64,000 bases of DNA from a phage: NCBI GenBank assembly GCA_011939005.1, contig GCA_011939005.1_4858.1; one strand, given 5' to 3'. The position numbers and the translations under genes are program-made. A model generated the notes under the pieces. It did not search any database. It was not told the origin of the DNA and was given only the letters and a program-made list of their open reading frames with translations. This document shows, piece after piece, positions 18,517 through 55,366 of the stretch (positions within the stretch are counted from its first letter, which is position 1; each line of letters begins with the position of its first letter).

Positions 18517-19404
18517 ATGAAAAACGATTTGCATCTTGCGTATAAAACCACATTCAACCACCCGCTGCATCTATCTTCCCCAGATTCAGTGCGTGCACAT
18601 CTCGCTGACAAAGTCAGACTGATTGCACAGATTCCTGGTGAGTGGCCAAAGGTTCGTGGTCGCTTCTTGACCGACAAGAAGAACTACACCGTAGAAAATA
18701 CGTTTAAGATCCGTGATATGGTTGCAGAGGCCATCGTTATCTTTAACGGCGATGGTAACTCTCGCGGCGTGTTGGTTGACGGTAAGTATTTCTTCAGTGA
18801 AGGGATTCTGAACAACAGTGTCGATTTAGAACTGATGTTTACACCGTTTGACGAACTTGAAGCAAAACCGATGGCGCGCCGTTGGTGGAGTCCGGACTAT
18901 CTGGGCTCGTTCCCTTACTACTTTGTACTGGTACCTGCCGATACGGAAACGTATTTCGACACCGAACCATACATCGATATCGAGGGGTATAAAGAACTCG
19001 GCATCACCCGTTTAGCGGACATGATGGCGTATAGCTATAAGTTCGTGTGGGATAAAAAGCGTTCTGTCTGGTATGCGCTGACTGACGATTTTGAAATCAC
19101 CAAGCGTATTCGTAAGCCGTGGATGCAACACCTGGTTCAAACTCGATATGGGGATTACCCGGCGACAGAAGCGGATTTGAGTAAGCTGGTAAGTTTCCTC
19201 TTAACGAAGGTGGATTTAACGAAAGAAGAAGCAGAAGCTGTTTCTGAGATTCGTGGTCGTTCGGTAACGTTGGCCGATTTGAAACGTCTGAACGAAAGAC
19301 ACGCCGACCTGAACAAAATTTTAGCTGCCTATCACGACCCGATGTTACTGGTGCCTGGCGCTAACGTAGACGAAGATCCTTTATTCGCCATTGATTATAT
19401 TTAA
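18517..19404 (+). CDS. hypothetical protein (295 aa) in Cys-peptide/radical-SAM operon
   Basis: RBS GGAG; co-oriented and tightly spaced with neighbours; no motif recognised. Confidence 0.55.
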   Translation: MKNDLHLAYKTTFNHPLHLSSPDSVRAHLADKVRLIAQIPGEWPKVRGRFLTDKKNYTVENTFKIRDMVAEAIVIFNGDGNSRGVLVDGKYFFSEGILNNSVDLELMFTPFDELEAKPMARRWWSPDYLGSFPYYFVLVPADTETYFDTEPYIDIEGYKELGITRLADMMAYSYKFVWDKKRSVWYALTDDFEITKRIRKPWMQHLVQTRYGDYPATEADLSKLVSFLLTKVDLTKEEAEAVSEIRGRSVTLADLKRLNERHADLNKILAAYHDPMLLVPGANVDEDPLFAIDYI

Positions 19405-19426
19405 AAATATACTGGAGCAACCTGCA

Positions 19427-20341
19427 ATGACAGATCAAGTAGAATCCAGGATCTCGTCTGAACTGTACGACAAACCGTCAATTCTGTCGGTTGTCGCAAC
19501 TTCTAAGTGTAACTTAGACTGTAGCTTCTGTGGAGGGGCTTATTACATGGATAGAGAAGATACTTCTCGTGAGTTTCAACGTGAAGAGATTCTCTCGATT
19601 TTAGAGAAGAATCCGGATATCGGTGAGATTCATTGGACGGGCGGTGAGCCGCTGTTAGCGCAGCGCAAGATTGAAGACTTCGTGAACGAGTTGAAGGAGT
19701 CTCATCCGAACCTCCGTCATCACATGTACACCAACGGTTTAAAGATGCGTAAATCACATCTGCCGTTGCTGAAACAGTTCGACCTTATCTTTGTGTCCAT
19801 TGACGGCTACAAGAAGTCGGAACGTCCGTTTATGAACTTTGTAAACGGTGGTAATCACGAAGCGCTGGAAGTGCTGTACGAGCTGGACAACTATTACACC
19901 TGGGGTGTGATGACGCGTGACCAGTTAGGTGATAAACGCTGGTACGAAGATTTCATCGAGCTGCACCGAGCAATCTATCATTACCGTCCAGGTGGTATGT
20001 CGTTGCTGTTTGATGCGATGATGCCGAAACCGTTATCGCCAGACCACGTCATGAACTTCATGTACGGGTATTGGAAAATACTCGACAATATCGAACGCCT
20101 TAACATGCAGAACGATTCTGAATGTGGGCTTGCGATCAGTAAAATGTTCGATACCGAGTGCAACACGTGCAGTGAAGTGCTGTGGCTTAACGCCGACGGT
20201 ACGCAGGAGCAAATTCAGAACGCCCCAGAGATATTGGAAGTCGGCTGTAATCGCCTGGCGCGTTCTATCGGCGTTGATGCGTATAACTACATCAACCGTG
20301 TAATTTCTGCTAAGCGTAAACGGGCGGCGAACAATGAGTAA
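19427..20341 (+). CDS. radical SAM enzyme (about 304 aa)
   Basis: C-x3-C-x2-C (CNLDCSFC) about 28 aa from the internal ATG start (RBS GGAG); GGEPLL motif; extra C-terminal cysteines (CGLA...CNTC...C) suggest an auxiliary cluster. Confidence 0.75.
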   Translation: MTDQVESRISSELYDKPSILSVVATSKCNLDCSFCGGAYYMDREDTSREFQREEILSILEKNPDIGEIHWTGGEPLLAQRKIEDFVNELKESHPNLRHHMYTNGLKMRKSHLPLLKQFDLIFVSIDGYKKSERPFMNFVNGGNHEALEVLYELDNYYTWGVMTRDQLGDKRWYEDFIELHRAIYHYRPGGMSLLFDAMMPKPLSPDHVMNFMYGYWKILDNIERLNMQNDSECGLAISKMFDTECNTCSEVLWLNADGTQEQIQNAPEILEVGCNRLARSIGVDAYNYINRVISAKRKRAANNE

Positions 20342-21662
20342 TAGCGAACAGCAAATCCAGTACACACCACGCACGTATCAGGTTGTGACTAACCTGTCAT
20401 GTAACCTGGACTGCGAATACTGCTACGAGCGTAAATATCCACGCAATAACAAAGTAGCTGACGTGATTGATTTTATCCACGCTTGCTTCGAGCGCGATAA
20501 AGATATCCCGAACGTTGAAGTCATCATCGATATCATCGGTGGTGAGCCGTTCATGCAGCCTAAACTTCTTTTGGCGGCCTTTGAAACCGCAGAGAAGTTA
20601 TGCGCAGAACACAATCGCCCGTATATGTTCAGTATCTCCACGAACGGTACACTTCTGGACCGTCCGCTGAACAAAGAAATTATCGAGCGCTGGAAAGACA
20701 AACTGTCTATTGGGGTCTCCATCGATGGTTTACCTGAAGTCCATGACAAATATCGTATCTTTACCACGACGCGTGAAGGGTCGTACGAAGCTGCGGTACG
20801 TGGTTACAATTATCTGAAGAGTGTTGGCATCGCTGAACTGGGCGTAAAGGCGACGTTTACGATCGATACATTGCCGCACTATGCCGCCAGCATGAAATCG
20901 TTAATTGACATGTCCGGCGGTGGTACCATTTCTGGTAACGTAACGTACGAAGATATCCTACCGCGCCATATGGCGTTGGATATCGCGAACCAGATGATGG
21001 ACGTGATGGACTACTGGATTGAGAAGGGTCTGCACACCAACCCGCGTAACACGATTACACACATCATCCCGGATGGCCTGAACTTTATGGCAACTTGGGA
21101 CCCGGATTGGCGTGACAAACTCTTACATGACGACTCTGTTCGTCTCGACCCAGAACGCCTGAAACCGTACTGCGGTACGTTGACGCACATGACCTGTCTC
21201 GGCTTTGATCGCAAGATTTACGGTTGTAACCGTTTCATGTCCACGGTAACTTCCCGTTCTGCTGTAGCAGAACTGGTCGGTCGTGAGTTTGTGAGCCTGG
21301 ACGGTGGTAAGCTGTTAGAAGAGATTCAAACGCAGTACACCAACTACCCAGAAACCTGTTTAGGGTGTCCGATGAAACACAGTTGCGGTAGCTGCGCGGC
21401 AGCATCGTACGAAAACGGTGAAGGTACACTGGAAGACCGTAAAGCGTATCATGCCGAGCGTCGTCAGTGTGGTTGGACTACTGCGAAGCTGATGGCGGCA
21501 GAATATTGGTATCAGAAAACTGGTACGACCCGCGCATCAGATTTGCATGATAAATCCATGTGCTATTGTTCACGTTGTGTACGCCAACGTGCTGAAGCAG
21601 AAAAATTACAAAACGGAGCCCAGAATGAAGTCAATACTGATTCACAATTTTACGAAGCGTAA
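20334..21662 (+). CDS. radical SAM enzyme with SPASM-like C-terminal domain (442 aa)
   Basis: CNLDCEYC near N-terminus; C-terminal cysteine cluster C-x2-C-x5-C-x2-C plus upstream Cys; start ATG overlaps stop of the upstream radical-SAM gene (translational coupling). Confidence 0.8.
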   Translation: MSNSEQQIQYTPRTYQVVTNLSCNLDCEYCYERKYPRNNKVADVIDFIHACFERDKDIPNVEVIIDIIGGEPFMQPKLLLAAFETAEKLCAEHNRPYMFSISTNGTLLDRPLNKEIIERWKDKLSIGVSIDGLPEVHDKYRIFTTTREGSYEAAVRGYNYLKSVGIAELGVKATFTIDTLPHYAASMKSLIDMSGGGTISGNVTYEDILPRHMALDIANQMMDVMDYWIEKGLHTNPRNTITHIIPDGLNFMATWDPDWRDKLLHDDSVRLDPERLKPYCGTLTHMTCLGFDRKIYGCNRFMSTVTSRSAVAELVGREFVSLDGGKLLEEIQTQYTNYPETCLGCPMKHSCGSCAAASYENGEGTLEDRKAYHAERRQCGWTTAKLMAAEYWYQKTGTTRASDLHDKSMCYCSRCVRQRAEAEKLQNGAQNEVNTDSQFYEA

Positions 21663-48630: not shown

Positions 48631-50790
48631 TTACTGATATATTTTGATTTGTGGGTAACTATAGCGATAGCTATCGCTATCAACATCCTGACCGACAAAC
48701 AAAATGCCTGTGTTAGAAAACGCCGCGCTGCAATACAATGTTAGCCCGGCGGGGTTAGAAATCGTATTACCGTAGTAGGCGCTGTAGCGCATGTACTTAC
48801 CATCATTCTTCACAAACAGGCTGCCTAACGATCCAACCATTCCGAAGATCAAACAAGCACCATCGGGAGAAACACAGACATTGCCGTTCGGATATCGAGT
48901 GGATGTTACACTATAATCAATTTCCGTGTAATCCAACTCACGTGTCGCCACCCAACCATCGGCGCGTTTTTCGAAGATGTAGTATTTGTGGGTTTCAAGG
49001 ACGGATACCAGTATGACTGAAAAGTTCGAAGATGCTGCCACCTTCAACGTCGAGGCTTCTGCTAACCCTGGGATGTCTAGCTTAGCGGTTTCAACATAGA
49101 GTCCTTCTGAACCTTTAGTTACGATATGGACAGATTTTCCATTGTGCTCTGAAAAAGCAACGCTGGTGCCATCGGCGGTCATCGCGATACTGTCGTACGA
49201 ACCACACAGAGCACCAGAATCGTCGAAGTCAAACGTGAGCGTTTCGTAATTTGAAAACCCATCACTTTTTTGGTAAACAGCTATTTCGCGCGTACCATTC
49301 CCAACGAACAGTGTCTCTCCGTCCGGGGTGAGTTTGACCAACTTACCGTTTACACCGGCGGCCGGGAGATTGGTAATTGCCGTTGGCGTCACTTTGCCCC
49401 ACGCCATGTCGGCACCGTTGTCGTAAACCAGCACTGCGCCCTTCGTTGTTTCTCCAGTTATCGCGGAAGGAATCCCGACGACGAACAAATCGCCTGACTT
49501 GTTTATCGATACCGGACAACGCCCGTCGGTTTCCGCATTTTCACCAGTATCAAAAGTTAGATCCATCAGAATGCTGGCATCGTGTCTATAGCCTGGGAAA
49601 TCTTTTCTATATATAGAAATTGTAGTTGAACGCTTTGCAAGCGGAGTGGTAATCAGAACATTTGCATCGCTACTACAATCCAATTCTGCACCCAACGAAT
49701 AATTATTTTCCGAAGACACGTTCAACGACTGGAATTCATTCGATGGGTATACGTTTCGGCTTATCTTTATCCGATAAGGATCGGACCACTGTCCGACGGT
49801 GTCCTCACCACGATATCTGACGCGTAGCCAATAACTACTACCGTATTGAAGCACGTTATCCGGCAGAGTTATCGTTGTAAGGTTTCGCATATCGAACAAT
49901 GAAGAGAATGGTAGGTTGCTACTAGGACTAAAATCTAACGTATCGCCATAGTTATAATAGAGTTTCCAGTCTGTAGCAATATGCGTTTCCGTGCCTGAAG
50001 TTTCAAACGTCGATGTTTCTATCGTTAAACCTGACGGTCCGTTCACATCGGTTGGGGTTGGCGACACTATCGTCGGTTTTTGGATTGTGGTCTCTATTAC
50101 CGAAAACATGGTTACTGACCAGTCACTATTAACCGTATCTGAGTGAAATTTAGCACGGGCGTAATACGTCTTGTTTCCTACCAGTGTGCCGGGTGGTAAA
50201 GTTAGAAATTTTTTAGCATCCTGAGATTCGAGCAATTGGTAAACCGTAGTGGAAAAATCTTCATTTTCAGACACTTCCCAACTCGTCGCTCTATGAGGTG
50301 TTGTTTGAAACGGCCTTGCAGTGAAGCCATTGAGGATAAAATCCAGATCACTAGCTGAACTAGAACCGTAGTACGGGGAAATCCATGTAGGCGCGTCCAC
50401 TACATTAGAGACCACCTCAATTTCATAGGTTTTGGTGATGCCGTTAGCAGAAACGGTCAGCGTAATAATTTGTCCTAACTGCCGAGGATCTTCGATAAAC
50501 AACGTATAGTTTAAACCTCCATAATGCCTGATTGTTGCTTCAGGGCACGTTACCTGATAAACCGACGGTTCTTCATTACCGGCAATGTAAAAAAGCGTTT
50601 CACTGCCTAGAATGCATTTTTTTTCATTTCCGTCGGAAAAGATTACAGTGAATGATGACTCTGCAGAAGCATCTGACAACGGTATCTTGTATTCGATTCC
50701 ATCCTTACTAAATAAAACAACCCCACCCGTTTTATCCCCAGTAAATTCAGGCAGTTCGTGTAAACGTTTCTTTTTGACTACAGTTGCCAT
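48631..50790 (-). CDS. large structural protein (719 aa) with tandem FN3/Ig-like domains
   Basis: Two FN3-like segments (W.V...E.F...Y...YYARAKF; W.L.Y..G....YWLRVRYRG); Thr/Ser-rich beta-type composition. Confidence 0.55.
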   Translation of the reverse strand: MATVVKKKRLHELPEFTGDKTGGVVLFSKDGIEYKIPLSDASAESSFTVIFSDGNEKKCILGSETLFYIAGNEEPSVYQVTCPEATIRHYGGLNYTLFIEDPRQLGQIITLTVSANGITKTYEIEVVSNVVDAPTWISPYYGSSSASDLDFILNGFTARPFQTTPHRATSWEVSENEDFSTTVYQLLESQDAKKFLTLPPGTLVGNKTYYARAKFHSDTVNSDWSVTMFSVIETTIQKPTIVSPTPTDVNGPSGLTIETSTFETSGTETHIATDWKLYYNYGDTLDFSPSSNLPFSSLFDMRNLTTITLPDNVLQYGSSYWLRVRYRGEDTVGQWSDPYRIKISRNVYPSNEFQSLNVSSENNYSLGAELDCSSDANVLITTPLAKRSTTISIYRKDFPGYRHDASILMDLTFDTGENAETDGRCPVSINKSGDLFVVGIPSAITGETTKGAVLVYDNGADMAWGKVTPTAITNLPAAGVNGKLVKLTPDGETLFVGNGTREIAVYQKSDGFSNYETLTFDFDDSGALCGSYDSIAMTADGTSVAFSEHNGKSVHIVTKGSEGLYVETAKLDIPGLAEASTLKVAASSNFSVILVSVLETHKYYIFEKRADGWVATRELDYTEIDYSVTSTRYPNGNVCVSPDGACLIFGMVGSLGSLFVKNDGKYMRYSAYYGNTISNPAGLTLYCSAAFSNTGILFVGQDVDSDSYRYSYPQIKIYQ

Positions 50791-51323
50791 TATACATCGT
50801 CTCCGTAGGTTAACACTGCATCATCACCGATGCATAAAACAGTTTCTTCATCCAGACTTGCCACAGCTTCTTTTTCATTAAACGCCGTGAATGTAAAGGT
50901 AGCCGTCCAAGCCGGTGAATCGTCACTCATCGCTGCAATCAATGGCTCGTTTGTTGGTGTAATAACCCCTGTCGAGATGTCTTCACGTGACAAGTTTAAA
51001 CCGCATAACTGGTTTACAACTGTCGCTAAATCAGCATAGGTGTCGCCGGGAGCTACAGTAACCAGTATCGGTCCTTGCGGGTCGATAATATTATTAGCGA
51101 CTAGACGGTCGTAATAGACGGTAACCTTCTTGCCGTTAGGTTTACGTGCTTTCGCAATGTACGCTTGCGAGGTACGGGCACTTTCAACACCTAAGTCGAT
51201 TGGCCCTACTCCGCTTATCACAATCTCGTCAGGCGATAATGACAAGCCGTTATCGTGATTAATCAACGCCACGACAAGCGCTTTCGACGAGATTGTTAGG
51301 TCGGGCTGATAGCGGTCTGCCAT
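50790..51323 (-). CDS. short N-domain family protein (about 177 aa), possible adaptor
   Basis: Internal ATG with GGAGG RBS; LINHDN...VTVYYDRL motif of the fiber N-domain family; stop overlaps start of the 719-aa gene. Confidence 0.5.
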   Translation of the reverse strand: MADRYQPDLTISSKALVVALINHDNGLSLSPDEIVISGVGPIDLGVESARTSQAYIAKARKPNGKKVTVYYDRLVANNIIDPQGPILVTVAPGDTYADLATVVNQLCGLNLSREDISTGVITPTNEPLIAAMSDDSPAWTATFTFTAFNEKEAVASLDEETVLCIGDDAVLTYGDDV

Positions 51324-51334
51324 TAACGCCTCCA

Positions 51335-51388
51335 GAAACAAAAAAAATAAGCTACCACACATATGATCGTGTGGTAGCCTACTCGTAC
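51335..51388 (-). terminator. rho-independent terminator
   Basis: Stem GCTACCACAC / GTGTGGTAGC followed by T-run on minus strand. Confidence 0.6.
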
Positions 51389-51392
51389 GCTG

Positions 51393-51788
51393 TTAGTGCA
51401 GTGTAGCACTGTGCACAACAGTTAACCCGCGACGTTTGATCTCATCCGCGATGGATTGCAACAGCTTATCGTAACCCACCTTTACAAATTCAGGTAAGCC
51501 ACGGTCAACCATCTCCATCTCGGTGATTTCTTCACGGAAAACTTGACAACAGCCTTCTAAATAACGTTTAGCTTCTGTCACGTCATCGACATACCGCGCA
51601 TAACTCAGGGCGATCGCGTAACCTTCTGCAATAAACGCATACTTCATGAAGATTTCTGGGTCGAGTTCTTCAACTGCTACGTCTAGACGTGAAGCGGTCT
51701 GACGTACAGAGTTACGTAATGATTCAGAAAACAGTGTAGTCGTAACCATATCCTGATTAGGAACGGTTTTAGGCATAATCAATTTCAC
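51393..51788 (-). CDS. hypothetical protein (131 aa)
   Basis: ORF in operon. Confidence 0.45.
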   Translation of the reverse strand: MKLIMPKTVPNQDMVTTTLFSESLRNSVRQTASRLDVAVEELDPEIFMKYAFIAEGYAIALSYARYVDDVTEAKRYLEGCCQVFREEITEMEMVDRGLPEFVKVGYDKLLQSIADEIKRRGLTVVHSATLH

Positions 51789-51799
51789 GAGGACTCTCC

Positions 51800-52183
51800 T
51801 TACGATAACTCGCCCATGTAAATTACTTCATAACCGAACCACTCACCGATTTCAATAAGGTAAGAAACTAGCAAGTGGCGATGACAGAATTTCCCCGGTG
51901 GGCAATAGCACATTAGTACGACCTCGCCCTGGCGGAGAATCTCTATCAACTTATCAGTGTCTTCATCAAACAACCGACTAAGTTTCTGCAGGTAGCGTTT
52001 GGTATACGCAGCTTCTGCGTCGGGGCCTTTATCAGACTTCTTGTAGTCCATCAGAAAGTCCCAGTCGGGTGCCAAATATTTCAACCCCGACTTAACTGTT
52101 ATATCCAGCTTTGGCAAATTCCGTTTTTCAGCTATCCGCCACTTCGCCAGTTGGAGCGTCCACAGCTTTACTTGCTTTGGCAT
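51800..52183 (-). CDS. DUF488 (YeaO-like) domain protein
   Basis: C-terminal LMCYCPPGKFCHRHLL matches the DUF488 signature. Confidence 0.5.
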   Translation of the reverse strand: MPKQVKLWTLQLAKWRIAEKRNLPKLDITVKSGLKYLAPDWDFLMDYKKSDKGPDAEAAYTKRYLQKLSRLFDEDTDKLIEILRQGEVVLMCYCPPGKFCHRHLLVSYLIEIGEWFGYEVIYMGELS

Positions 52184-53135
52184 TTTTCGCTATCTCTTTT
52201 TCTTTCTCCTGAAGCGCTTTAAAATGTGGCGCATACGCGCACCACTCTTCCGCGGTAAACGATGTGATACATAACCGGTTAGTATCTTCACTTACCGTAA
52301 AGGTCGTGTGGTTTCTTTCCGGGTCCTTAAAGTTAGCAAAAGCCGGTACGCCCAAACCCATAGCAGAAATAGCACTACCGAGAGCAGAACACCATACCCG
52401 TCTGTAAGCATCGTTGATTTTAATCTCCCATCCCACTGACGGTGTAATACCAAGACTACGATAATTCTGCGACTTTGCCGACGGATGGGCATAAACGATG
52501 AGCACGTTATTCTCACGGTCTATCGCGAATTCGTAGTTGTTGTTGTTACTGACCTGTACCAACCTACGAATATCTTCCGGCAACTCCTGCCACATTTCCA
52601 GTTTCTCTTTATCCCACGCAGGTGTTAGAAGCGGTGGAACGCGACCGGCATGATCTTGGAAATACATCAATTCGCTATAGAGGTTCTTTAAGCGAGCGTA
52701 CTCGTCTAATGTCCAATCTCCCAGCTCTAGACTATTCTCCAACGCATCTAGCTTATTCCAACCAACAACTGCATAGGCGTGGTGCTGTTTGCGCGTAATA
52801 CCACACATCAGTTTAGCGAGACCGTTAACAACATTGCCCTGCTGAACCAGAGGCGACCAGCCGTTAGCATATCCAGCGCTAACGACAGGCTGGAAGTTCT
52901 CTTCCCCGAGCACCGCCCATGTAACATGTTCGGTTTGTGCATGGTGTCTATCCATCAACCGTTCAACAATGGCCACGCTACAAAGAATTTCCATGAAGTT
53001 CGCGTTACCTCCATTCCACATGGAGAAATACGCAGGACGGACATGTCGTGCTTCATTGGCCGGTGCTTTGCATAGCAGCTGATACATTATCCAGGTGGAA
53101 TCCAACCCTGCTGAAAACGAAACGAGCTTCGCCAT
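52128..53135 (-). CDS. putative PP-loop (adenine nucleotide alpha-hydrolase) superfamily protein (335 aa)
   Basis: N-terminal SFSAGLDST resembles the SGGxDS PP-loop; assignment tentative. Confidence 0.3.
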   Translation of the reverse strand: MAKLVSFSAGLDSTWIMYQLLCKAPANEARHVRPAYFSMWNGGNANFMEILCSVAIVERLMDRHHAQTEHVTWAVLGEENFQPVVSAGYANGWSPLVQQGNVVNGLAKLMCGITRKQHHAYAVVGWNKLDALENSLELGDWTLDEYARLKNLYSELMYFQDHAGRVPPLLTPAWDKEKLEMWQELPEDIRRLVQVSNNNNYEFAIDRENNVLIVYAHPSAKSQNYRSLGITPSVGWEIKINDAYRRVWCSALGSAISAMGLGVPAFANFKDPERNHTTFTVSEDTNRLCITSFTAEEWCAYAPHFKALQEKEKEIAKNAKASKAVDAPTGEVADS

Positions 53136-53143
53136 CCTTTACC

Positions 53144-53476
53144 TCACTTTTGTTTCTGTTTTTCTTCACGCATCAACTTAGCGTTCAGGTCGACCATGTA
53201 ACCCGGTTTTTCCATCACCTGCACTTCTTCCCAATTGCTCCCCACTGCCATTTTGAGGGTTCCTTGACGTACCGCGATTTCTTTTGCAGTGTCACGGCAG
53301 ACCTCTAACGCTTCGTCCAAATCGTTAAAGGTTGTCTTCTGTGGTCCGTTAAAGGTTTTAGCGCATTCCAGGAATACACGTTCGTAAACATCCTGGTCGA
53401 GTAAGAGTGGTTTGTCCGCAGCGTGGACAACCATAGGCGCAACGAGTGCGCCTAACAGAACTAAAACTTTCTTCAT
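53144..53476 (-). CDS. secreted/periplasmic small protein (110 aa)
   Basis: Classic Sec signal peptide MKKVLVLLGALVAPMVVHA with A-x-A cleavage site. Confidence 0.55.
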   Translation of the reverse strand: MKKVLVLLGALVAPMVVHAADKPLLLDQDVYERVFLECAKTFNGPQKTTFNDLDEALEVCRDTAKEIAVRQGTLKMAVGSNWEEVQVMEKPGYMVDLNAKLMREEKQKQK

Positions 53477-53605
53477 TGTTTCACCGTGTGTATAAGTTGA
53501 TAACGTGGGGTTTCTTCTACCACAACATCAAAGGATGGAATACATGGGGTTAAAATCAAATCCATGTAACCTAGGGTCAATAGCGCACTTGCGGCGCTAT
53601 TAGCA

Positions 53606-55366
53606 TTACGCGTTCTCTGTCCAAGCACGCCCACGCAGCGTTTCACCGCGTATGTCATATTGCTTATATTTCGAAGAGTCGTAAGACGCAGGTAGGAAGA
53701 TCTGATGAACAATATCCGCCAGTCGACGAGCACCAAGGTTCTCTACAGCATTGGCTTCCATTGTTTTCTCAGCGATGAACGTATAGGTGTCCATGTCGTA
53801 CTGCGTTTCCACCCCTTCGGTTTTCAACAACTTAATCATGCCGTGGAACTCACTGTTATCCAACTTACAGATAGCAATCAGTGCCTCGGTATCCAGCGAA
53901 GACATTTTCGCTCTTAACGGAAAACGTCCCTGGAGTTCTGCCATGAGTTTAGAAACAGGCGCTTGAGCAAACGACCCAGCAGCGACAAAAAGCACATTGG
54001 TTGTGTCAACGCCATGATAAATACCCCCTTCAACCATTTTCAACAAGCTACGCTGCACACCACTACGGGATACACGTGCGGTGTGTTGCGTGTCAGTCTC
54101 GATAAGTTTGTCAAACTCATCCAAGAACACCACCGCAAAGTTCTCAACGAAATCATGCCCATTACAGTTGGGTAGTTTCTTGAGGTCTTTGCGGCTGACT
54201 GTTTCTTTTTCTGGTGCAACTGTTTCAGGTATCTCGTAATGCCAGAGCCGTTCATCGGCGTATTTGGTAAATTCTGGAGAACCTTCGAACACGTCATCCC
54301 ACCAACGACACCACTTCTCAGGATCTTCCAAACGAGACAACAAGCGAATAGTAAACGCTGTAGCGTTGATCGGGAGCCAATTAATGCCCACCGGCTCGAC
54401 GTCCTCGTCGTCGCCGTTAAACGTGTCGAACAAATCGTAGAAATCTGAGCCATCGGCACACGAGAGTGGCAGGTTATTTGACATCAGCGCTTGACCGGCA
54501 TCAACGTATAAGTCAATCTGTTCGCCTAAAGCCATCAGCGACATAAACTCACCCATATACCCAATCGCGCCCGGTATATCACCATCCATTAACTTATCGA
54601 CTTGACTTTCAAGTTCTACACTATTCAACAGTTCAGAAATTGACGAGACACCGAGCAGACTCCTTGCGATTTCCGACATCTTATCTATCCATTCCTGCAC
54701 AGTACGGCCACCGAGCGTAACAGAATAGATATCGAAGTCTTCGTAGGTTAAATTGTGTTGACGGCAATAGCCAACCATAAACGCGCGAAGACAATAGATG
54801 TCTTGGTATTCTTCGTACAACTCCTTCGGATCGAGTATACCCTGACGCCGTAATAGTTCGGTGTGGTCACGTTTAGCTTGATACCGCAGCTGGCGCTCAG
54901 CTGCGCGCTCGTCTAGTTCGCGCTCAACTTCCTTACGGGATTCACGCTCCCACTCTTCACGAGTAAGACGATTACCGTCTACTTCCGTCTCGACACGTCG
55001 TTTGGTACGCAGCTCGATATACCAGTCGGGCAATTCGACAGAACGCGCTAAGTCGGCTAAGTCCTTGCCGATTGATGTAACTTCCCGGCCTACGTAGCCT
55101 GATTCTGTAAACGCGGTCATGTCGAGTTCCAGCACAGGTAAACCGAATTTAGTTTTCAGTACCCGCATCAACGCTGTTTTACCCGTGCCTGTTGGACCTT
55201 CTATTAAAAGGTTCTGTTTGTGGACCGACATACGGTCCACTACGTTGAGTTTGTTGGCACGATATCGATTACGTAGCGCAATCGCCAGCATTTTCTTTGC
55301 CTGCGTTTGTCCGTATACGTAACGGTCGAATAGCGCCACTATCTCAACCGGCGTGAGGTTTTCCAT
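53606..55366 (-). CDS. hslU: HslU-like AAA+ ATPase/unfoldase (586 aa)
   Basis: N-terminus GQ..AK..LAIALRNRYR....nLLieGPTGTGKT (Walker A) then TESGYVG; C-terminus FLDEFDK...GVQRSLLK.VEG...AAGSF...LQGRFP...GARRL, colinear with HslU including an inserted domain; RBS AGAGGA. Confidence 0.8.
   Translation of the reverse strand: MENLTPVEIVALFDRYVYGQTQAKKMLAIALRNRYRANKLNVVDRMSVHKQNLLIEGPTGTGKTALMRVLKTKFGLPVLELDMTAFTESGYVGREVTSIGKDLADLARSVELPDWYIELRTKRRVETEVDGNRLTREEWERESRKEVERELDERAAERQLRYQAKRDHTELLRRQGILDPKELYEEYQDIYCLRAFMVGYCRQHNLTYEDFDIYSVTLGGRTVQEWIDKMSEIARSLLGVSSISELLNSVELESQVDKLMDGDIPGAIGYMGEFMSLMALGEQIDLYVDAGQALMSNNLPLSCADGSDFYDLFDTFNGDDEDVEPVGINWLPINATAFTIRLLSRLEDPEKWCRWWDDVFEGSPEFTKYADERLWHYEIPETVAPEKETVSRKDLKKLPNCNGHDFVENFAVVFLDEFDKLIETDTQHTARVSRSGVQRSLLKMVEGGIYHGVDTTNVLFVAAGSFAQAPVSKLMAELQGRFPLRAKMSSLDTEALIAICKLDNSEFHGMIKLLKTEGVETQYDMDTYTFIAEKTMEANAVENLGARRLADIVHQIFLPASYDSSKYKQYDIRGETLRGRAWTENA

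Follow-up and report, generated by a model that had tools for sequence, protein, structure and literature searches.

What does the gene for a 335-amino-acid (aa) protein do in a jumbo phage, and is the small DUF488 gene that overlaps its 3' end a partner in the same function? We analyzed a stretch of 64,000 nucleotides (nt) of phage DNA (contig GCA_011939005.1_4858.1 of assembly GCA_011939005.1), hereafter the window, whose nucleotide sequence places it in the genus Seoulvirus as an SPN3US-like jumbo phage (Salmonella/E. coli). The region at positions 51300-53600 was 96-99.6% identical to the known isolates SPN3US, SPLA3, the SPFM phages, and vB_EcoM_EC001. Two open reading frames (ORFs) on the minus strand, both with an ATG start, are at the center of the question: a 335-aa ORF at 52128-53135, homologous to SPN3US ACQ60_gp147, and a 127-aa ORF at 51800-52183, homologous to SPN3US ACQ60_gp146 and phiKZ gp151. 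The SPN3US counterparts are annotated as "hypothetical protein" and "DUF488 family protein," respectively, and from the order of locus tags we infer that ACQ60_gp147 is the original SPN3US gp119. In the sequence-only reading of the window, the 2 genes had been taken as a DUF488 gene next to a possible PP-loop (pyrophosphate-binding loop) enzyme and, as a pair, as a possible part of a DNA or tRNA modification function, for example of the deazaguanine type. On the evidence below, the 335-aa gene probably encodes an active, highly divergent QueC/Cap9-like PP-loop ATP pyrophosphatase, a zinc-less adenylating ligase/amidotransferase and the founding member of a family seen to date in jumbo phages alone.

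It took a family profile and a structure model to bring out the homology of the 335-aa protein, whose single PHROGs assignment was phrog_8825 ("unknown function"). Among 1.84 billion representative proteins searched exhaustively with a profile, 48 relatives (clusters) were identified, of which 46 were aligned and used to build the family profile. Fifteen of the 46 relatives matched Pfam QueC (PF06508) and 10 matched ATP_bind_3, a PP-loop family, in both cases weakly (best E for QueC 2.4e-6). Against the PDB, the 46-sequence profile matched Cap9 (E 3.5e-5), QueC (0.002 and 0.007), and TilS (0.003), along with nitrile synthetase, LarE, and argininosuccinate synthetase. Alignment of family residues 1-184 with residues 1-171 of E. 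coli QueC by hhalign gave a probability of 92.6% (E 4.6e-7); the motif numbering of the QueC sequence used here agrees with PMC13082051. With the structure model as the query, Foldseek returned PP-loop enzymes at all ranks from 1 to 33 among the PDB matches, the model and the solved enzymes having a Rossmann-like alpha/beta fold in common, and the matches to catalytic PP-loop enzymes were about twice as strong as those to USPs. Cap9 was the single best match by structure and by sequence, with only a small margin over QueC and ThiI. Because independent lines of evidence agree, namely, the N-terminal motif, the fold, the profile searches, and the QueC alignment, we assign the 335-aa protein on sequence and model to the PP-loop ATP pyrophosphatase superfamily as a genuine but divergent member of a QueC/Cap9-like branch.

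The N-terminal motif consists of residues S8-A9-G10-L11-D12-S13 (53097-53114, minus strand, read from the translation) in the form SxGxDS, and in the structure model this loop sits between a strand at residues 2-6 and a helix at residues 11-22. No second SxGxDS occurs among the 109 ORF segments in the window that reach 100 aa or more, approximately 0.42 occurrences being expected by chance anywhere in these segments and approximately 2e-4 if only the first 20 residues of one given protein are counted. Residues G10, L11, D12, S13, T14, and W15 were invariant in 12 homologues with identity down to 33%. This invariance and the low chance expectation show that the motif is real and conserved and not a chance match. 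In most of the 46 wider relatives the motif reads FSGGLDST, the canonical form, and SAGLDS aligns with the SGGxDS of TilS, QueC, and Cap9, the Cap9 motif also being written SxGxDS (10.1101/2025.04.06.647259). The SGGxDS-like signature and the PP-loop guess of the sequence-only reading were thus both borne out, the former at residues 8-13 and the latter through the reach of the family profile to Cap9 and QueC and the weak QueC matches of the relatives.

A second PP-loop-family motif, T171-P-A-W-D-K-E-K178-L-E-M-W182 (52590-52625, minus strand), is the counterpart of QueC TPLMWIDKAETW, and in the 46-sequence alignment its P172 and K178 were invariant and its W174 nearly so. Across this alignment, in which mean column identity was only 18%, the invariant positions were G10, S13, Q98, G125, P172, K178, and K221, and at least 90% conservation was found at E49, W126, D130, W174, and G229. 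Fixed positions of catalytic type amid such divergence argue for a working active site. We also searched the 46 sequences for a conserved Cys and found none, with no column above 24% Cys. The family is acidic, with a median isoelectric point (pI) of 5.8. The architecture comprises a QueC/Cap9-like core at approximately residues 1-195 and a family-specific C-terminal domain at approximately 196-335, some 140 residues modeled as beta-hairpins and a long helix and carrying the invariant K221 as well as G229.

We compared these features with those of the nearest characterized PP-loop enzymes. Canonical QueC is defined by SGGxDS, a C(x)8CxxCxxC zinc site, YxQxHxxE, VPxRN, and YPDC (PMC13082051). 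Of these, the 335-aa family keeps the PP-loop, the Glu (E49, the equivalent of QueC E42), and V..N (V97, N101), whereas Y35, Q37, and H39 of YxQxHxxE, the Arg of VPxRN (R99), and YPDC are all replaced. The QueC zinc motif (residues 186-204) lies beyond the end of the hhalign alignment at QueC residue 171, and in place of the zinc ribbon the family has its C-terminal domain without a recognizable relative. We therefore rejected QueC sensu stricto, with C(x)8CxxCxxC absent, the pocket motifs replaced, and no pathway partners annotated in the close relative SPN3US. Cap9 has a zinc site as well (10.1101/2025.04.06.647259), and the lack of a conserved Cys excludes this site together with the Fe-S triads of TtuA, NcsA, and LarE and the catalytic Cys of ThiI and MnmA. 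Membership in Cap9/QatC, the protein-deazaguanylating defense paralogues of QueC (Cap9 from type IV CBASS operons, QatC from qatABCD), was likewise rejected, with no PADLOC model matched, no conserved Cys, and a phage operon as the context; unlike QueC, Cap9, and QatC, the 335-aa family is phage-encoded and does not come from defense islands. A sulfurtransferase of the ThiI, MnmA, TtuA, NcsA, or LarE type was rejected for the want of a conserved catalytic, persulfide, or Fe-S Cys. Likeness to TilS, NH3-dependent NadE, and the ATP-PPase of GMP synthetase (N-type) was confined to the shared core, and the substrate-binding domains and motifs of these 3 enzymes were not detected in the 335-aa protein.

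The DUF488 assignment of the 127-aa protein was well supported, with DUF488-N3a (PF22751) at 46.1 bits against a Pfam cut-off of 27 (E 7.3e-12) and DUF488 (PF04343) at 28.3 bits against a cut-off of 22.2 (E 2.9e-6), so the DUF488 call of the sequence-only reading holds; DUF4326 was matched weakly. We identified a predicted active-site loop, C92-Y-C-P-P-G-K-F-C-H-R102 (51878-51910, minus strand), which lies in the model between a strand at residues 87-92 and a helix at residues 101-115. The residues invariant in 19 DUF488-N3a homologues were S32, A38, P39, W41, Y60, C92, Y93, C94, F99, C100, H101, R102, G124, and E125, and they include the Cys...Cys-His-Arg motif of the "active" DUF488 subclade (C92, C94, C100, H101, R102). 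Burroughs and Aravind reportedly placed DUF488 in the rhodanese-phosphatase superfamily in 2023. DUF4326 has been placed in the same superfamily (PMC9503650), and the invariant residues agree with this placement of both families, pointing to a rhodanese-phosphatase-like fold for the 127-aa protein. Among DUF488 (E. coli YeaO type), DUF4326, and the RapZ C-terminal domain, the 127-aa protein stands apart as a single-domain member of a phage-specific subclade, the phiKZ gp151 family. No tested enzymatic activity was found for the DUF488 family in the literature covered, which did not include the clade-defining paper of Burroughs and Aravind (2023). Fusions of DUF488-N3a with a PP-loop domain were sought and none was identified, all 33 of 33 close relatives being single-domain proteins.

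The sequence-only reading had described the 2 genes as overlapping, and in the window their ORFs do so by 56 nt in different frames (52128-52183, minus strand). The DUF488 start lies within the 3' end of the PP-loop gene, from which it follows that the genes are cotranscribed, and their translation is probably coupled. We also observed that conservation extends from Salmonella to Erwinia phages in the last approximately 15 residues of the 335-aa protein (AS...D...GEVA.S) and that in Salmonella phages this tail is the very stretch overlapping the DUF488 start; its conservation may come from the dual-coding constraint or from a functional tail, e.g., an interaction or import signal.

Beyond this lineage, the 2 genes are distributed differently. 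Every long contig carrying the PP-loop family looks like a jumbo phage, named members including phage EL gp200, Klebsiella phage Miami gp102 ("rossmann fold-containing protein"), and proteins of many Erwinia phages, and a screen of 185,579 cellular species genomes found no relative, a weak negative obtained with a single peptide pattern. DUF488-N3a is widespread in phiKZ-like phages, with 290 phage records matching. We identified DUF488-N3a within 10 kb at 8 of 27 PP-loop loci, all 8 in 1 subfamily, and at 0 of 19 loci of 2 other subfamilies; conversely, a PP-loop gene lay within 10 kb at only 9 of 80 DUF488-N3a loci. In SPN3US-like and Erwinia phages, the genes overlap by 44-56 nt (44-53 nt in Erwinia phages) or are 55 nt apart, and in Wellington/Kwan-type phages the gap is approximately 2.5 kb. 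Proximity is retained in relatives down to 24-34% identity, including 2 metagenomic loci, one with the genes adjacent and a PP-loop protein only 24% identical to the 335-aa protein (L005) and one with a gap of 2.8 kb (L003). Outside the subfamily, both genes could be placed in PA1C, HPP-Temi, and UViG_3300013104, where they are 60-117 kb apart, although the PP-loop-side match in PA1C and HPP-Temi spans residues 5-73 only and may be a different QueC-like gene.

In phage EL, with 98.6% of the genome scanned, the PP-loop gene was present and DUF488-N3a was not found. In phiKZ-type phages and 201phi2-1, DUF488-N3a instead lies just downstream of the UvsX-like, nucleus-localized recombinase gp152/Nlp1, with 1 ORF (gp236) between the 2 genes in 201phi2-1, and no PP-loop gene was identified within 6 kb of these DUF488 loci. 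The 293-aa product of gp236, just upstream of DUF488, was considered as a hidden PP-loop homologue and rejected, remaining undetected by the family hidden Markov model (HMM) with filters off. Separate occurrence in other phages means that the PP-loop and DUF488 proteins are not obligate partners: the 2 genes form 1 operon in this lineage and not an obligatory two-component system. Of the earlier idea of the pair as a functional unit, the operon therefore stands and a conserved two-gene system does not.

How would such a protein act? To our knowledge, all characterized PP-loop enzymes adenylate a substrate oxygen and release pyrophosphate (PPi), after which a nucleophile displaces AMP. By analogy, we infer that the 335-aa protein is catalytic and would bind ATP on its S8-x-G-x-D-S13 loop, adenylate its substrate on a carbonyl or carboxylate oxygen, and release PPi. 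The nucleophile that then displaces AMP would most likely be ammonia or an amine, since the family has no conserved Cys, zinc, or Fe-S site. The product would be an amide or amidine, making the protein an "N-type" ligase/amidotransferase, as are QueC, Cap9, TilS, NadE, and GuaA, and not a self-contained sulfurtransferase. Substrate recognition would probably fall to the C-terminal domain with K221 and G229, in place of the QueC zinc ribbon. In the EL-like subfamily, a thymidylate-kinase gene lies directly downstream of the PP-loop gene in 13 of 14 loci, which is suggestive of a function in nucleotide metabolism. A small nucleotide- or nucleobase-like molecule, or a protein, is mildly favored as the substrate over direct binding of tRNA or DNA because of the acidic pI, the lack of an RNA-binding module, and this deoxynucleoside monophosphate (dNMP) kinase neighbor. 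The DUF488-N3a protein, as a Cys-His-Arg enzyme of rhodanese-phosphatase type, may act on a phosphate or sugar-phosphate group or, alternatively, serve as a sulfur donor, and the 2 proteins may share one nucleotide-like metabolite without being obligate partners.

Several points weigh against this assignment and the activity proposed for it. The 335-aa protein alone gave no significant match in Pfam, NCBIfam, or PADLOC, so that the HMM check suggested in the sequence-only reading failed for the protein itself and succeeded, weakly, for its relatives with QueC and ATP_bind_3. Position 2 of the PP-loop motif is Ala and not Gly. The C-terminal domain had no credible match in the profile search against the PDB, which weakens what can be said about the substrate, and both pI and gene neighborhood are soft evidence. 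The link to DUF488 is lineage-specific and could be mere inherited synteny.

The 2 ORFs belong to a longer minus-strand unit. Its last gene is a 131-aa ORF with a GTG start (51393-51788, minus strand; phrog_17719, unknown function), conserved in the closest relatives only and preceded by a GGAGAG Shine-Dalgarno sequence 5 nt ahead of the start. Further, a terminator-like hairpin with a 17-bp stem followed by a T-run (51345-51384, minus strand) closes the unit 3' of this ORF; this very strong intrinsic-terminator-like hairpin also overlaps the start-codon region of the gene for the DUF7941 virion protein (50790-51362). Directly upstream of the 335-aa ORF is a 110-aa ORF (53144-53476, minus strand; phrog_10627, unknown function), whose N-terminus, MKKVLVLLGALVAPMVVHAADKP, resembles a cleavable signal peptide, and its small product is probably exported, amid an operon of cytoplasmic enzymes. 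In the LR5359xx records (SPFM5-12, 14, and 20), the region at 51300-53600 was matched as 32-35 short pieces with approximately 98% identity and with both proteins shredded; these records look like indel-rich assemblies and not like real gene decay.

Farther upstream on the same strand lies a gene for a 586-aa HslU/ClpX-like AAA+ ATPase (53606-55366, minus strand), which forms part of the genomic context and whose functional link to the PP-loop and DUF488 genes is only putative. It scored 209 bits with NCBIfam hslU, which is below the cut-off, and a long insert separates its AAA half from its AAA_2 half. An HslU-like AAA+ ATPase gene and an approximately 160-aa Peptidase_S80-like gene travel with the pair in the SPN3US/Erwinia branch, and the 586-aa ATPase was 40-50% identical to the products of genes beside PP-loop/DUF488 in Erwinia phages and 2 further loci (L003, L119); in SPN3US, the HslU-like gene is absent at this locus. 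The S80-like gene (L001:8174-8659 and L002:5358-5840 for comparison), which bears the label "head maturation protease," separates the 110-aa gene from the next upstream gene in SPN3US, SPLA3, and Erwinia phages, and its Erwinia-type copy matched Pfam with E 4e-8. The label, met in relatives on a gene beside this locus, thus belongs to this different gene. In the window, only S80-like remnants of 22-32 aa were identified, within an 87-aa ORF with a TTG start (53473-53736, minus strand), and the gene appears by its sequence to have been deleted. The S80-like protein and the HslU-like ATPase might once have been an ATP-dependent protease pair. In phage EL (209396-211166, L120), where a thymidylate-kinase-like gene likewise comes directly after the PP-loop gene, and in the EL-like metagenomic loci (L006 and L097-L109), a true S80 prohead protease is encoded approximately 4 kb upstream.

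Elsewhere in the window, we identified 2 overlapping radical-SAM genes on the plus strand (19391-20341 and 20334-21662), an unusual content for a phage. The first weakly resembles HxsC, viperin, and MoaA, and the second is like SPASM peptide maturases (CXXX-repeat, PapB, HxsB), scoring up to 126 bits. As candidates for QueE they were rejected, with 40 bits against a cut-off of 260 and a likeness to maturases of the SPASM/HxsB/HxsC type.

With the locus laid out, the other explanations can be weighed. A deazaguanine enzyme of the preQ0/queuosine type, i.e., a phage QueC producing preQ0 or ADG to be inserted into phage DNA or tRNA, would fit the status of QueC and Cap9 as the nearest solved relatives, the 15 of 46 weak QueC matches, and the labels QueC or "queuosine biosynthesis" that annotators gave to 1 metagenomic and 2 phage homologues, and the host, with the queuosine synthesis of enterobacteria, could provide 7-carboxy-7-deazaguanine. 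Yet the QueC signature of PMC13082051 is not there (zinc motif, conserved Cys, Y35/Q37/H39, the Arg of VPxRN, YPDC), the QueC alignment stops short of the zinc region, and the PADLOC models for Cap9/QatC were not matched. Of the partners that the sequence-only reading had proposed to look for, QueD and DpdA are not annotated in the complete 240-kb genome of SPN3US, and nor are TGT and FolE, a negative that rests on the annotation of the record and not on an HMM scan of each ORF, and the radical-SAM genes are not QueE. We consider this explanation very unlikely, and the deazaguanine-type pathway suggested for DNA or tRNA modification found no support. Only a slim chance is given to a thiolation pair, in which the PP-loop protein adenylates a nucleobase carbonyl, as do ThiI, MnmA, and YcfA, and DUF488-N3a, with its 3 invariant Cys, delivers sulfur in trans as a persulfide or from a bound cluster, like the rhodanese domain of ThiI. 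Compared with ThiI, TtuA, NcsA, MnmA, and YcfA, the 335-aa protein lacks a catalytic Cys, an Fe-S Cys triad, and a THUMP or other RNA-binding domain, and its neighbor is of a DUF488 clade and not a canonical rhodanese.

Similarly unlikely is Cap9/QatC-like protein conjugation, in which a small carboxylate is ligated to a protein amine, or interference with host QueC-family immunity, perhaps together with the HslU-like unfoldase and the S80-like peptidase. QueC-family enzymes do modify protein N-termini (10.1101/2025.04.06.647259; PMC13279940), Cap9 is the best match by both structure and sequence, the family is acidic, and the HslU-like AAA+ gene, in relatives also the Peptidase_S80-like gene, accompanies the PP-loop gene in several lineages. 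On the other hand, Cap9 leads QueC and ThiI by little, the Cap9 zinc site is absent, no PADLOC model for Cap9/QatC was matched, the SPN3US locus has no HslU-like gene and the window no S80-like gene, and no candidate target protein was identified. The least probable explanation is a degenerate, non-catalytic PP-loop fold that, in the manner of USP-like domains, serves in structure, regulation, or nucleotide sensing. In 46 very divergent sequences, little or no variation is seen in the PP-loop, at the Glu that corresponds to QueC E42, or in the P..W...K motif, which indicates selection on the active site, and the USP matches have only about half the strength of those to catalytic PP-loop enzymes. 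We retain an active, zinc-less PP-loop ligase/amidotransferase as the preferred interpretation of the 335-aa gene.

A more novel reading, which we regard as improbable but somewhat less so than the explanations just weighed, is that the jumbo-phage family, as a new zinc-less offshoot of QueC/Cap9, carries out a reaction so far undescribed in phages. It might ligate a nucleobase-like carboxylate to a protein or metabolite, with a role in counter-defense against type IV CBASS or QatABCD, e.g., by consuming or diverting 7-carboxy-7-deazaguanine, or it might act with the Cys-rich DUF488-N3a in nucleotide thiolation or amination inside the phage nucleus. If either option is true, nucleus-forming phages would have an enzyme activity of a new kind and possibly a modification of nucleotides or proteins that is new as well.

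In nucleus-forming jumbo phages, the majority of genes still lack a functional assignment. The "hypothetical" family phrog_8825 can now be placed in a defined enzyme superfamily with predictable chemistry, and the occasional QueC labels on its members in databases are corrected, the family not being QueC. As far as its sequences tell, it is a new zinc-less QueC-like PP-loop family that is confined to jumbo phages and whose C-terminal domain is also new. QueC-family enzymes have newly been tied to bacterial immunity through protein deazaguanylation, and a phage-only, zinc-less relative of them is a reasonable place to look for counter-defense or for new chemistry on nucleotides or proteins.

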